Shown here piece by piece: positions 6,628 through 31,574 of a DNA stretch of 64,000 nucleotides; the stretch's first letter is position 1; every line of letters starts with the position of its first letter. A model generated the notes under the pieces. That model had not been told where the DNA came from, searched no databases, and saw only the letters and a list, made by a program, of their open reading frames with translations. Location: NCBI RefSeq assembly GCF_056746865.1, contig NZ_CM163382.1. One strand, given 5' to 3'. Made by a program: the position numbers and the translations under genes.

Positions 6628-7881
6628 ATGTCAGGATCCAACACTGCAATCAGCCGTCGTCGTTTACTGCAAGGCGCGGGTGCCATGTGGCTATTGAGCG
6701 TAAGTCAGGTCAGTCTGGCTGCGGTCAGCCAGGTCGTGGCGGTGCGCGTCTGGCCTGCGTCCAGCTACACCCGCGTGACGGTAGAATCAAATCGTCAGCT
6801 GAAATATAAGCAGTTCGCGTTGAGTAACCCGGAACGCGTGGTGGTGGATATCGAAGATGTAAACCTGAACTCGGTACTCAAGGGGATGGCGGCACAAATT
6901 CGTGCAGACGACCCGTTCATCAAGTCGGCGCGCGTCGGGCAATTTGACCCGCAAACCGTACGCATGGTTTTTGAATTAAAGCAAAACGTAAAACCGCAGC
7001 TGTTTGCCCTTGCGCCGGTCGCCGGGTTTAAAGAGCGTCTGGTGATGGACCTCTATCCGGCTAATGCACAGGATATGCAGGACCCGCTGCTGGCGCTGCT
7101 GGAGGATTACAACAAAGGCGACCTCGAAAAGCAGGTGCCGCCAGCACAAAGTGGTCCACAACCGGGTAAAGCAGGGCGCGATCGTCCGATTGTTATTATG
7201 CTTGACCCTGGCCACGGCGGCGAAGACTCCGGTGCGGTGGGGAAATACAAAACGCGCGAAAAAGACGTGGTATTGCAAATAGCTCGCCGTTTGCGCTCTC
7301 TGATCGAGAAAGAGGGCAATATGAAGGTGTACATGACGCGCAATGAAGACATCTTCATTCCGTTGCAAGTGCGCGTAGCAAAAGCCCAGAAACAGCGTGC
7401 CGACCTGTTTGTCTCTATCCATGCCGACGCCTTTACCAGTCGCCAGCCGAGCGGTTCCTCTGTGTTTGCGCTCTCAACCAAAGGTGCAACCAGTACTGCG
7501 GCAAAATATCTGGCACAAACCCAGAACGCCTCGGACTTGATTGGTGGCGTGAGCAAAAGCGGTGACCGCTATGTCGACCACACCATGTTCGATATGGTGC
7601 AGTCGCTGACCATTGCCGACAGCCTTAAGTTTGGTAAAGCGGTGCTGAATAAGCTCGGTAAAATCAACAAGCTGCATAAAAATCAGGTTGAACAGGCCGG
7701 GTTTGCCGTGCTGAAAGCGCCTGATATTCCCTCCATTCTGGTCGAAACGGCGTTTATCAGTAACGTTGAGGAAGAGCGTAAACTGAAAACGGCGACCTTC
7801 CAGCAGGAAGTTGCGGAGTCTATTCTTGCGGGGATTAAAGCGTATTTTGCCGATGGGGCGACGCTGGCGAGAAGGGGATGA
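6628..7881 (+). CDS. amiC: N-acetylmuramoyl-L-alanine amidase AmiC (Tat signal RRRLLQGAG)
   Basis: Track ORF 6538..7881; start taken at the ATG at 6628 preceded by GGGAGAGG; twin-arginine signal and amidase_3 domain recognisable. Confidence 0.9.
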
Positions 7882-7883
7882 TA

Positions 7884-7910
7884 AAAAGGCGCTGAATGGC
7901 GCTTTTTTTA
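7884..7910 (+). terminator. Possible weak hairpin plus T-run after amiC
   Basis: ggcgctgaatggcgc followed by ttttttt; the stem is imperfect. Confidence 0.3.
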
Positions 7911-7923
7911 TGGGAGAGCAGAA

Positions 7924-7955: not shown

Positions 7956-8032
<77 letters not shown>

Positions 8033-8064
8033 TCACCGTACTGCTTTATTTCATCAAATTTGAT

Positions 8065-8141
<77 letters not shown>

Positions 8142-8174
8142 TCACCGTACTGCTTTACTTCATCAAATTTTAAT

Positions 8175-8251
<77 letters not shown>

Positions 8252-8459: not shown

Positions 8460-9557
8460 ATGAAAGGACGTTGGGTAAAGTACCTTCTTATGGGCACGGT
8501 TGTGGCAATGCTTGCCGCCTGCTCTTCCAAACCAACCGATCGCGGACAGCAATATAAAGACGGGAAATTTACCCAGCCTTTCTCTCTGGTGAACCAGCCA
8601 GATGCCGTTGGCGCGCCGATTAACGCCGGTGATTTTGCCGAGCAAATTAACCATATCCGTAATTCGTCACCGCGTCTGTATGGCAACCAGAGTAATGTTT
8701 ATAACGCGGTGCAAGAGTGGCTGCGCGCAGGCGGTGATACCCGCAATATGCGCCAGTTCGGCATTGATGCCTGGCAGATGGAAGGTGCCGACAACTATGG
8801 TAACGTGCAGTTTACAGGCTATTACACGCCGGTAATTCAGGCGCGCCATACCCGCCAGGGCGAGTTCCAGTATCCGATTTACCGTATGCCGCCAAAACGT
8901 GGTCGTCTGCCGTCTCGTGCGGAGATCTACGCGGGGGCATTGAGTGATAAATATATTCTCGCTTACAGTAACTCCCTGATGGATAACTTCATTATGGATG
9001 TGCAGGGTAGTGGGTATATCGACTTTGGTGATGGCAGTCCGCTTAACTTTTTCAGCTATGCAGGGAAAAACGGTCATGCCTATCGCAGCATTGGTAAGGT
9101 GCTGATCGACCGTGGCGAAGTGAAAAAAGAAGATATGTCGATGCAGGCGATTCGTCACTGGGGCGAAACACACAGTGAAGCCGAGGTTCGCGAGCTGCTG
9201 GAACAGAACCCGTCTTTCGTCTTCTTTAAACCGCAATCTTTTGCACCGGTGAAAGGGGCAAGTGCGGTGCCGCTGGTTGGCCGTGCTTCTGTTGCCTCCG
9301 ATCGTTCAATTATTCCGCCAGGTACTACCTTGCTGGCAGAAGTGCCGCTGCTGGATAATAACGGCAAATTTAACGGTCAGTACGAATTGCGTCTGATGGT
9401 GGCGCTGGATGTCGGTGGCGCAATCAAAGGCCAACACTTCGATATCTATCAAGGGATCGGGCCGGAAGCCGGGCACCGCGCAGGTTGGTACAACCACTAT
9501 GGACGTGTCTGGGTGCTGAAAACGGCTCCGGGCGCAGGTAACGTCTTTAGCGGCTGA
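8460..9557 (+). CDS. mltA: Membrane-bound lytic murein transglycosylase A (lipoprotein, 365 aa)
   Basis: Track ORF 8178..9557 is over-extended across the tRNAs; true start is the ATG at 8460 (MKGRWVKYLLMGTVVAMLAACSS, lipobox LAAC). Confidence 0.9.
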   Translation: MKGRWVKYLLMGTVVAMLAACSSKPTDRGQQYKDGKFTQPFSLVNQPDAVGAPINAGDFAEQINHIRNSSPRLYGNQSNVYNAVQEWLRAGGDTRNMRQFGIDAWQMEGADNYGNVQFTGYYTPVIQARHTRQGEFQYPIYRMPPKRGRLPSRAEIYAGALSDKYILAYSNSLMDNFIMDVQGSGYIDFGDGSPLNFFSYAGKNGHAYRSIGKVLIDRGEVKKEDMSMQAIRHWGETHSEAEVRELLEQNPSFVFFKPQSFAPVKGASAVPLVGRASVASDRSIIPPGTTLLAEVPLLDNNGKFNGQYELRLMVALDVGGAIKGQHFDIYQGIGPEAGHRAGWYNHYGRVWVLKTAPGAGNVFSG

Positions 9558-9645
9558 TGTGATATTCTGTATGCCGTTTTTACGGATATGACAGGGTGAG
9601 GGGTAACCTCACATCCTGATTATTGACTAAGTGCGCGTTGTTCAT

Positions 9646-9742
9646 GCCGGATGCGGCGTGAACGCCTTATCCGGCCTACAAATCATGCAAATCCAAAATA
9701 TTGCAGGAGTTATGTAGGCCTGATAAGCGTAGCGCATCAGGC
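9646..9742. repeat. REP/BIME cluster (two REP palindromes)
   Basis: gccggatgcggcgtgaacgccttatccggcctaca and gtaggcctgataagcgtagcgcatcaggc, typical enterobacterial REP units. Confidence 0.6.
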
Positions 9743-9795
9743 ATTTATGCGTTTAGGGTGAGGGATAACCTCGCCCTTTTTAATTCTGAGGTGCT

Positions 9796-10602
9796 ATGTC
9801 TGTGGTAATTAGTGATGCATGGCGTCAGCGTTTTGGCGGCACTGCGCGTCTGTATGGTGAAAAAGCGCTGCAACTGTTTGCCGATGCACATATTTGTGTG
9901 GTGGGTATTGGCGGTGTCGGTTCCTGGGCGGCGGAAGCGCTGGCGCGCACAGGGATTGGCGCAATCACGCTTATCGATATGGATGATGTGTGCGTCACCA
10001 ATACCAATCGGCAAATTCATGCCCTGCGCGATAACGTTGGGCTGGCAAAAGCGGAAGTTATGGCGGAGCGTATTCGCCAGATTAACCCGGAGTGCCGTGT
10101 AACGGTGGTGGATGATTTCGTGACGCCGGATAACGTAGCGCAGTATATGAGCGTGGGTTATTCGTACGTGATTGATGCCATTGATAGTGTACGGCCCAAA
10201 GCGGCGCTGATTGCTTATTGTCGGCGCAATAAAATCCCGCTGGTCACGACTGGTGGCGCGGGTGGGCAGATTGACCCGACGCAGATTCAGGTTACCGATC
10301 TGGCGAAAACGATTCAGGACCCGCTGGCGGCGAAGTTGCGTGAGCGCCTGAAAAGCGATTTTGGCATAGTGAAAAACAGTAAAGGTAAGCTCGGCGTGGA
10401 TTGCGTGTTCTCTACCGAAGCATTGGTGTACCCGCAGTCAGACGGTACGGTGTGTGCTATGAAAGCCACGGCGGAAGGGCCGAAGCGGATGGATTGTGCA
10501 TCTGGATTTGGCGCGGCGACGATGGTGACCGCCACCTTTGGTTTTGTTGCGGTTTCTCATGCGCTGAAGAAGATGATGGCGAAAGCGGCCCGTCAGGGGT
10601 AA
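9796..10602 (+). CDS. tcdA: tRNA threonylcarbamoyladenosine dehydratase (E1-like, ThiF/MoeB fold)
   Basis: 268-aa ORF with GIGGVGS nucleotide-binding motif; adjacent to csdE/csdA. Confidence 0.9.
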   Translation: MSVVISDAWRQRFGGTARLYGEKALQLFADAHICVVGIGGVGSWAAEALARTGIGAITLIDMDDVCVTNTNRQIHALRDNVGLAKAEVMAERIRQINPECRVTVVDDFVTPDNVAQYMSVGYSYVIDAIDSVRPKAALIAYCRRNKIPLVTTGGAGGQIDPTQIQVTDLAKTIQDPLAAKLRERLKSDFGIVKNSKGKLGVDCVFSTEALVYPQSDGTVCAMKATAEGPKRMDCASGFGAATMVTATFGFVAVSHALKKMMAKAARQG

Positions 10603-10608
10603 ACAATC

Positions 10609-10643
10609 AGGTCGGATGCGACGCGAACGTCTTATCCGACCTG
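10609..10643. repeat. REP element
   Basis: gtcggatgcgacgcgaacgtcttatccgacc palindrome between convergent tcdA and csdE. Confidence 0.55.
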
Positions 10644-10652
10644 GTTCTGTGC

Positions 10653-12736: not shown

Positions 12737-12944
12737 AAAAAAAAAGCACCGCAATTAGGCGGTGCTACATTAATCACTATGGACAGACAGGGTAAATGTA
12801 CAGGAAGTGAAAAAAGGTAGCTTTGCTACCATGGTCTGAATCGCAGACCAATTGCAAACACAACAACACAACATCACAACCGTAAGCCAAAAGTTCACCA
12901 GAACACGCATTCCGATAAAACTTTTCGTTCCGGCTCAGGAAGTG
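12737..12944 (-). ncRNA. gcvB: GcvB small regulatory RNA
   Basis: Minus strand reads ACTTCCTGAGCCGGAACGAAAAGTTTTATCGGAATGCGTGTTCTGGTGAACTTTTGGCTTACGGTTGTGATGTTGTGTTGTTGTG... ending in hairpin GCACCGCCTAATTGCGGTGC plus T-run; GU-rich targeting region present; divergent from gcvA. Confidence 0.85.
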
Positions 12945-31163: not shown

Positions 31164-31530
31164 GTCGACAGGGAGTCAGACAACGAAGTGAACATCAGGA
31201 TGATGACACTTCTGAAGGACACACCAGGATGGTGTTTCAGGGAAAGGCTTCTGGATGAAGCGAAGAGGATGACGCAGGACGCGTTAAAGGACACCTCCAG
31301 GATGGAGAATGAGAACCGGTCAGGATGATTCGGTGGGTCAGGAAGGCCAGGGACACTTCAGGATGAAGTATCACATCGGGGTGGTGTGAGCAGGAAGCAA
31401 TAGTTCAGGATGAACGATTGGCCGCAAGGCCAGAGGAAAAGTTGTCAAGGATGAGCAGGGAGCAACAAAAGTAGCTGGAATGCTGCGAAACGAACCGGGA
31501 GCACTGTGAATACAGTGCTCCCTTTTTTTA
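31164..31530 (+). ncRNA. csrB: CsrB sRNA (CsrA-sequestering RNA)
   Basis: Begins GTCGACAGGGAGTCAGACAACGAAGTGAACATCAGGATGATG; many CAGGAUG/AGGA-type CsrA-binding motifs throughout; ends with a rho-independent terminator. Confidence 0.9.
31497..31529 (+). terminator. csrB rho-independent terminator
   Basis: gggagcactg-tgaata-cagtgctccc hairpin followed by TTTTTTT. Confidence 0.85.
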
Positions 31531-31574
31531 TTCCTGCTATTCTTCGCGGCAGTTTTTCTTATTGAGGTTGCTTT

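Follow-up and report, generated by a model that had tools for sequence, protein, structure and literature searches.

The mltA-tcdA spacer

This analysis concerns the spacer between mltA and tcdA in a 64,000-nucleotide stretch of contig NZ_CM163382.1 (RefSeq assembly GCF_056746865.1), hereafter called the window, where a pair of repetitive extragenic palindromic (REP) sequences lies between two copies of a short direct repeat. We assign this pair to a bacterial interspersed mosaic element of type 1 (BIME-1). Over the stretch tested, the region is 100% identical to Escherichia coli strain 118UI. Gene coordinates were obtained by carrying over the RefSeq annotation from loci that are 98-100% identical, together with a list of open reading frames (ORFs). 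All features of the spacer are given on the + strand. The mltA coding sequence spans 8460-9557, with its TGA stop codon at 9555-9557, and the tcdA coding sequence spans 9796-10602, with its ATG at 9796.

Downstream of mltA, a first stem-loop, AGGGTGAGG-GGTAA-CCTCAC[AT]CCT, occupies positions 9593-9617. This copy is a bulged hairpin without a T-run and is not a terminator. It is followed by an insert of 137 bp (9618-9754), which begins with the left flanking motif of BIME-1, GATTATTGACTAAGTGCGCGTTGTTCA (9618-9644). Homology with the copy in the fepA-entD spacer starts there, and the motif is a diverged version of the left end of the family, (T)CAGATTGCTGACAAAGTGCGC, as given by the consensus of the 42 sites described below. 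Then come a y-type REP of 35 nt with CTAC at its end (TGCCGGATGCGGCGTGAACGCCTTATCCGGCCTAC, 9645-9679), an L linker of 34 nt homologous to the linkers of other copies (9680-9713), and an inverted z1-type REP of 29 nt with a GTAG head (GTAGGCCTGATAAGCGTAGCGCATCAGGC, 9714-9742). Both REPs were delimited by their inverted-repeat pairs; the y REP, present in 42/42 sampled sites, follows a pattern, TTATCCGGCCTAC, common to all sampled BIME-1 copies. The insert closes with a shortened right flanking motif, ATTTATGCGTTT (9743-9754), which, compared with fepA-entD and the 42-site sample, lacks the terminal GTCATCAGTCTC of full-length BIME-1 copies; E. albertii has the same truncation.

The second stem-loop, AGGGTGAGG-GATAA-CCTCGCCCT (9755-9777), is the predicted stem of the intrinsic terminator of mltA. 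It is followed by the T-run and tail TTTTAATTCT (9778-9787) and directly by the Shine-Dalgarno sequence of tcdA, GAGG (9788-9791), which starts 10 nt after the end of the stem-loop. The BIME-1 is thus extragenic, placed at the 3' end of the transcription unit after the stop codon of mltA (9557) and before the terminator of this gene (9755-9787). The locus holds a single BIME-1 unit in the window. One hairpin together with the BIME-1 forms a unit of 162 bp that varies in copy number between strains (9593-9754, the register being arbitrary within the repeat). When positions 9588-9790 are folded, the y REP pairs with the z1 REP in one long imperfect hairpin (-86.9 kcal/mol, z = -7.0).

The insert is assigned to BIME-1

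According to our in silico analysis, the insert has the composition of a BIME-1 (RIB/RIP), a known element made of a y REP, an L linker and a z1 REP with A/B-type end motifs, of which several dozen copies are reported in K-12. Published lengths are 35 nt for the y REP, 29 nt for z1 and 37 nt for z2 (PMC8266576), and the 29 nt of the second REP fit z1, not z2. The L linker of BIME-1 and its integration host factor (IHF) site have also been described (PMC3333891). In the window copy this site is degenerate and putative, predicted from sequence only: it reads ATCCAAAATATTG, with 2 mismatches to the consensus WATCAANNNNTTR, and most other BIME-1 copies read ATTCAATATATTG, with 1 mismatch.

In 2,753 records the insert is conserved with an identity of at least 99%. 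Where a genome lacks it, the best match is the element of fepA-entD, 89% identical over 137 bp with the non-REP flanks included. The insert is thus a dispersed element, which the hairpin is not. BIME-1 paralogues elsewhere, fepA-entD among them, do not carry the repeat of this locus. The formerly mobile part is an ordinary BIME-1 between the repeat copies.

Only one Rfam family, RF02751 (ES036/CssrF), exceeded its threshold in the region, matching 9679-9721 at 46.5 bits (gathering score 37.6); the naRNA4 matches were sub-threshold matches to the REPs. We did not accept the region as a small RNA (sRNA) gene, the sequence matched by RF02751 being just the L linker of BIME-1. Judging from this match, RF02751 probably describes the BIME-1 repeat rather than a dedicated sRNA gene.

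The repeated segment is a whole stem-loop

A repeat search found AGGGTGAGGGRTAACCTC at 9593-9610 and 9755-9772, with 17 of 18 bases identical (94%) and a start-to-start distance of 162 bp. The left copy reads AGGGTGAGGGGTAACCTC and the right copy AGGGTGAGGGATAACCTC. The 17-mer GGGTGAGGGRTAACCTC has exactly two matches in the window (9594-9610 and 9756-9772), and no further match was found there with up to 3 mismatches, for 0.24 expected by chance. If a 2-nt insertion is allowed (AT, 9613-9614), the left copy at 9593-9617 becomes a bulged form of the complete 23-nt stem-loop at 9755-9777, so that the true repeat is the whole 23-nt stem-loop. An earlier inspection of the letters and ORFs, hereafter the sequence-only reading, had described two REP palindromes between mltA and tcdA flanked by near-identical direct repeats. 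Both observations hold, and its coordinates are right within a few bases; the repeat ends that it gave, 9612 and 9775, lie slightly beyond the identical core, and what is repeated, the whole stem-loop, is longer than it had reported.

RNA folding gave -17.2 kcal/mol for the right copy (z = -4.2) and -14.7 kcal/mol for the left copy. The right copy with TTTTAATTCT was the sole terminator-like site called between 9300 and 10000 by a terminator scan. The left copy was not called, and it is followed by ATTATTGAC in place of a T-run. With its G+C-rich stem-loop and T-run, the right copy has the features by which intrinsic (Rho-independent) terminators are recognized and is the predicted terminator of mltA.

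Across 5,425 E. coli genomes, a 49-nt probe containing the hairpin matched a median of 1 place and never more than 2 in any one of them; each match that was listed or fetched belongs to the mltA-tcdA locus. No dispersed copies of the 17-mer were found in E. coli genomes at the sensitivity of BLAST (about 19-20 nt or longer).

The 162-bp unit varies among E. coli strains

A query of 551 bp across the spacer was compared with 5,426 complete E. coli genomes. It was covered in full in 2,751 of them, and the rest matched over 388-389 bp, which is 162-163 bp shorter; the 162-bp unit is therefore single in about 51% and absent in about 49% of these genomes. Alignment of the short alleles showed one perfect or near-perfect hairpin and the T-run, and nothing else. 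In local trees of mltA and of tcdA, long and short alleles are interleaved, which points to recombination around the locus. About 10% of the small variable segments of E. coli have flanking direct repeats (PMC2884548). We infer that the short E. coli alleles are mainly secondary, precise losses between the repeats.

The short alleles themselves are not uniform. Among L093, L094 and L096-L101, at least three single-hairpin variants (G..A, A..G and A..A at positions 11/19) occur on different flanking haplotypes, a distribution that fits several independent losses or gene conversion. Strain E166 (L095, NZ_CP032066.1 2792059-2794446) carries a tandem duplication of the mltA 3' end, the left hairpin and half of the BIME-1. 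The duplication junction falls inside the L linker, between ACAAATC and TGGCAGAAG; a short-type allele comes next, and RefSeq annotates a '3D domain' pseudogene there.

Orthologous spacers carry one hairpin or a filled site

Orthologous spacers from 80 species were fetched via TcdA. Salmonella (L017, L021), Phytobacter (L013), Enterobacter (L052, L053, L063), Leclercia (L045, L047) and others have a single (C)AGGGTGAGGGATAACCTCACCC hairpin followed by TTTTT just upstream of the tcdA ribosome-binding site, and the succession of terminator and Shine-Dalgarno sequence is kept in these four genera. Since the single hairpin is conserved in outgroup genera, we take one hairpin as the ancestral state. 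No tandem hairpin free of BIME was found at this spacer among the loci of the 80 species. As the hairpin is confined to one locus in E. coli and stands as a single, BIME-free copy in other genera, the repeat is duplicated local target DNA, namely the mltA terminator stem-loop; it does not belong to a dispersed composite element.

The BIME with two hairpins is also found in E. albertii and in three other Escherichia lineages that count as separate species in GTDB, and its right end is truncated there in the same way (...GCGTTT/AGGG). This shared insertion indicates that the event predates E. coli. The two copies of one Escherichia genome (L008) share a perfect 20-mer. The left copy of E. albertii, AGAGTGAGA-AATAA-TCTCGCTCT, forms a complete hairpin and has two compensatory pair changes relative to the right copy, which suggests that the left hairpin has been maintained there. 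Escherichia sp. MOD1-EC7003 (L009:1-815) carries a tandem array of [BIME-1 + hairpin] with at least 4 units and at least 5 hairpins. Its hairpins start at 121, 283, 445, 607 and 769, an exact 162-bp spacing, and its units are 95-97% identical. Alleles without the unit, with 1 and with at least 4 thus all occur. The sequence-only reading had proposed that the region is recombination-prone, and the strains indeed differ exactly at the repeat boundaries. It had also made its case depend on further copies of the repeat or on a variable region: other copies are lacking, as said above, and the comparison of strains that it called for shows that the region is not invariant, the 162-bp unit being absent, present or amplified.

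In Cedecea-like genomes the mltA terminator is a different hairpin, CGGGCTGTATAATCAGCCCG. Two copies of it enclose a 141-bp insert in L054 and a different insert of 128-130 bp in L055 and L069, and in close relatives (L068, L060, L046, L072) the hairpin is single. In Kosakonia sp. S29 (L029), two GGGTGAGG-type hairpins surround a 137-bp insert. These inserts (L054, L055, L069 and L029, at locus coordinates of about 1270-1500 in the spacer) contain no y or z1 REPs and have subterminal inverted TGACAAA(G/C), as in BIME-1; that of L054 has a perfect IHF consensus, AATCAATGAATTG. From these alignments, the same mltA terminator appears to have been hit several times independently, always with the same geometry.

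Different palindromes occur in the spacer upstream of tcdA in three further genomes of Enterobacter sp. and Pseudocitrobacter (L023, L073, L083). They are nested and boxC-like (CCCTCTCCC..GGGAGAGGGTTAGGGTGAGGG), and in their outer arm, GGGTGAGGG, they are similar to the type of terminator stem seen in Escherichia and Salmonella.

Stem-loop duplications flank other BIME-1 copies

Metagenome contigs were scanned for a y REP, a gap of 28-40 nt and a z1 REP; the 110 usable matches obtained represent 42 distinct sites. At each site, the 110 nt to the left of the y REP were aligned to the 110 nt to the right of the z1 REP, and 1,722 mismatched left/right pairs served as the null. A direct repeat between the two flanks scored above the 99th percentile of the null at 12 of the 42 sites, and 3 more sites were borderline at the same offsets. 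All of these flanking repeats lie at the ends of the element, and all fold as stem-loops. With strict detection of the ends, 8 of the 12 sites have repeats of 18-27 nt placed 0-2 nt from both ends of the element; these repeats score 21-46, and the null reaches 20 at most. Across the 12-15 sites, the duplicated local stem-loop is 18-37 nt long. Of 13 repeats, 10 have an A-rich run on the upstream side, a T-rich run on the downstream side, or both, which makes them look like uni- or bidirectional intrinsic terminators.

Empty alleles hold exactly one hairpin at all 5 sites compared, mltA-tcdA, artJ-rlmC, ysgA-metE, pitA-uspB and rutG-ymdF. The fbp-flanking site (L154) has a left flank that is absent from E. 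coli and thus stands outside this comparison of filled and empty alleles.

Full-length copies start with (T)CAGATTGCTGACAAAGTGCGC... and end with ...GCGTTTGTCATCAGTCTC, an imperfect terminal inverted repeat that is partly lost in the window copy. Across the family this repeat starts with CAGATTGCTGACAAAG, and the end, as reverse complement, reads GAGACTGATGACAAAG.

One metagenome site (site 3, L105; match 7852-7914, - strand) has a y-L-z1 core that lacks the usual BIME-1 end motifs and stands between two boxC-like hairpins, CCCTCTCC-GTGA-GGAGAGGG and CCTTCTCC-ATGT-GGAGAGGG. Either the hairpin duplication recurs here with other boundaries of the element, or these are two boxC copies.

Other features near the locus

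The convergent spacer of tcdA and csdE (10603-10652) contains one REP-like palindrome, GGTCGGATGCGACGCGAACGTCTTATCCGACC, with naRNA4 matches that are only sub-threshold. Three tRNA genes with identical scores lie upstream of mltA, and the sRNA genes GcvB and CsrB were also detected, all above the Rfam gathering score; these tRNA and sRNA matches are at 7959-8251 (-), 12738-12943 (-) and 31173-31532 (+). Going by the gene order of K-12, we take the three tRNA genes to be metZ, metW and metV.

Origin of the direct repeat

We consider it highly probable that the direct repeat is a target-site duplication produced by the insertion of a BIME-1 at the mltA terminator, and that the resulting unit was later lost or amplified. 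The ancestral spacer would have held one intrinsic terminator, the stem-loop AGGGTGAGG-GATAA-CCTCACCCT with its T-run, directly before the tcdA ribosome-binding site. In an ancestor of E. coli and E. albertii, this stem-loop would have received a BIME-1 at its base, and the whole stem-loop would have come to stand on either side of the element. With its T-run kept, the right copy would have remained the terminator, and the left copy would have become an internal hairpin in a longer mltA 3' untranslated region (UTR), which according to the fold gains 162 nt with three strong hairpins. Repeats of 18-23 bp lying 162 bp apart would then make the region unstable by slippage or unequal exchange, with precise loss of the unit in about half of the E. 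coli genomes and tandem amplification in another Escherichia lineage. The duplicated segment abuts the ends of the element, its length varies with and coincides with the stem-loop, and the T-run or A-run stays outside the duplication. We infer that the insertion event itself gave rise to the duplication.

Other origins of the repeat fit the data less well. Short repeats in two copies are frequently chance matches, and two short, G-rich, hairpin-like intergenic sequences could resemble each other by accident; we give this practically no weight, given two exact matches where 0.24 were expected even at 3 mismatches, copies identical over 20 nt in L008 and a strain indel that equals the repeat spacing exactly. 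The sequence-only reading saw in the 17-bp repeats the termini of a composite mobile element travelling with the BIME. The repeats do stand exactly on either side of the REP pair, and strains have or lack the 162-bp block as a whole. This proposal is nonetheless very improbable and we have abandoned it: the window has no further copy of the repeat and the E. coli genomes have at most 2 places each, in genera free of the BIME a single copy of this hairpin stands at the corresponding position as the terminator, and the hairpins that flank other BIME-1 copies are different and specific to their loci. More serious, though still improbable, is a duplication separate from the insertion, in which slippage first made a tandem hairpin that received the BIME in between, or the BIME inserted with no duplication and selection for restored termination later added a second hairpin. 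Tandem amplification of the unit does occur (L009), and at the degraded junctions the order of events is not directly readable. Against this stand the two local hairpins that abut the element with gaps of 0-2 nt at 12-15 sites with unrelated hairpins, the empty alleles with one copy and not two at 5/5 sites, and the absence of a BIME-free tandem hairpin among the 80 species loci.

The origin of the short E. coli alleles is a distinct question. They could be the ancestral empty site, retained as a polymorphism or re-imported, as the empty configuration of more distant genera and the interleaving of alleles on local haplotype trees would allow. The hairpin of strain 1919D62, which is no simple crossover product, would also agree with this. 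We regard such retention as unlikely, though not negligible. The insertion, with the same truncated right end in E. albertii and the three other Escherichia lineages, is older than E. coli, and an empty allele would have had to survive through speciation; the repeats offer an easy route for deletion, and the reverse event, amplification, is observed; finally, 1919D62 lacks the unit and yet shows 0 differences from K-12, which has the long allele, in flanks of 900 + 807 nt (1,707 nt).

Several observations weigh against insertion with duplication followed by loss, or complicate it. The hairpin of 1919D62 has A at positions 11 and 19, and the K-12 copies have G..A (left) and A..G (right); a single crossover between the K-12 copies as the origin of this short allele is contradicted by these two single-nucleotide polymorphisms, and the hairpin needs mismatch correction with slippage, an extra mutation or a very short import. 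The array of L009 runs to the end of its contig, so that its true length and some of its assembly are uncertain. Around two thirds of the sampled BIME-1 sites, the closest paralogue at fepA-entD included, have no detectable flanking repeat; these sites could reflect decay, or the duplication could be non-obligatory. The 42 sites are moreover metagenome contigs clustered by their flanking k-mers, not a curated census of genomes. At the present locus the junctions are remodelled, with CCTGATT instead of TCAGATT at the left end, 12 nt missing from the right end and 2 nt added to the left hairpin, which means that the original cut sites are not exactly readable. The transposition usually proposed for REPs, by HUH/RAYT (REP-associated tyrosine transposase) enzymes, is not expected to make target duplications, and single-strand transposition of the IS200/IS605 type yields no larger ones (PMC2817692). 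No enzyme or matching transposase was recognized, and no systematic search was made for long elements with these ends.

As to how the duplication could arise, lengths of 18-37 bp are not explained by a transposase with a fixed stagger. In the mechanism that we prefer as the simplest, the element would be joined across the base of an extruded stem-loop (a cruciform), where the borders of the palindrome lie side by side, and a small stagger there would leave the entire palindrome duplicated when the DNA returns to its linear form. We put this specific mechanism forward tentatively and hold it to be rather doubtful. A plasmid search for an autonomous element with full-length BIME-1 returned captured chromosomal segments only (cueO, dppA). 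Compared with IS1, IS3, IS4/IS10/IS50, IS5, IS21, IS30, IS186, IS903, Tn3 and Tn7, the end motifs showed only short and unconvincing likenesses, from which we make no claim.

A possible family of terminator-targeting inserts

It is conceivable, though we would not assume it, that BIME-1 and the Cedecea-like and Kosakonia inserts of 128-152 bp form one non-autonomous family with subterminal inverted TGACAAA(G/C) and integrate where an extruded terminator stem-loop has its base. BIME-1 and one Cedecea-like insert also have a central IHF-type site. The duplicated target would then be the entire stem-loop, with a variable length set by DNA structure and not by a transposase of fixed stagger, and a terminator would be left on each side. 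The REPs would be cargo instead of the signal for transposition, and RAYT would not be the enzyme.

REP and BIME sequences are among the most abundant repeats of enterobacteria, and their mode of spread has been open for decades. The element itself is known; what seems new is that terminator stem-loops are duplicated around BIME-1 and around inserts related to it, the extent of the duplication being defined by structure. The insertion signature would consist of inverted-repeat ends, a preference for intrinsic-terminator stem-loops and the duplication of the whole stem-loop. If reproducible, it would lead to testable predictions on the choice of target, on the role of end motifs versus REPs and on the enzyme. 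It would explain why BIME-1 copies stand at the 3' ends of transcription units with termination intact, why they so often give rise to precise polymorphism in presence and in copy number, and why intergenic typing markers based on BIME-1 are unstable. For this locus the result is modest: an element of a catalogued type in a 3' UTR.

Comparison with known systems

The insert resembles published BIME-1 copies in its composition, in its y REP of 35 nt and z1 REP of 29 nt, in its size of about 140 bp, in its inverted REPs and in its L linker, and also in its extragenic position at a 3' end and its presence or absence from strain to strain (PMC3333891; PMC8266576; PMC1187871). It differs from them by its degenerate IHF site and truncated right end. 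In the literature searched, which did not include the BIME papers of the 1990s, we found no description of hairpin-length duplications flanking BIME-1 and no mention of its imperfect terminal inverted repeats CAGATTGCTGACAAAG / GAGACTGATGACAAAG; a prior report of the duplications is possible. Bachellier and colleagues (Genetics, 1997) reportedly mentioned 'excisions of a whole BIME-1'.

The behaviour of the unit is that of slippage or unequal exchange between short direct repeats: the indel equals the spacing, and products of both loss and amplification are seen. This accounts for the instability, not for the origin of the repeat. An analogy for the origin can be found in spacer integration by Cas1-Cas2, where attacks at both borders of a partly palindromic repeat duplicate the whole unit, with the involvement of IHF in E. 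coli. Off-target integration by Cas1-Cas2 has been reported beside cruciform-forming sequences that abut AT-rich DNA. The likeness is one of analogy only, since the DNA inserted there is about 33 bp against a 150-bp element here, and nothing links BIME-1 to Cas proteins.

As of 2021, the mechanism by which REPs and BIMEs are disseminated was still unresolved (PMC8266576). Like the REPINs mobilized by RAYT (TnpA-REP, an HUH Y1 enzyme), BIME-1 has two inverted REPs in one long hairpin and is non-autonomous, intergenic and dispersed. In contrast to that system, in which mobilization proceeds without target duplication, the BIME-1 copies described here are flanked by duplications of 18-37 bp. A further difference is that inserts with similar ends in other genera have no y or z1 REPs, which suggests that the ends rather than the REPs are the conserved part.

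A review of 2011 described REPs as lacking the signatures of MITEs, the miniature inverted-repeat transposable elements (PMC3184786). The BIME-1 family resembles bacterial MITEs such as ERIC/IRU and Correia/NEMIS in being 130-155 bp long and multicopy, without an ORF and with imperfect terminal inverted repeats; it also shares with MITEs its flanking direct repeats and its empty sites in other strains, and its putative central IHF site recalls that of Correia (PMC3184786). The difference lies in the duplication itself: that of a classical MITE is short and fixed by the transposase, whereas here it spans 18-37 bp and matches a whole stem-loop, so that its length is apparently set by the structure of the target.

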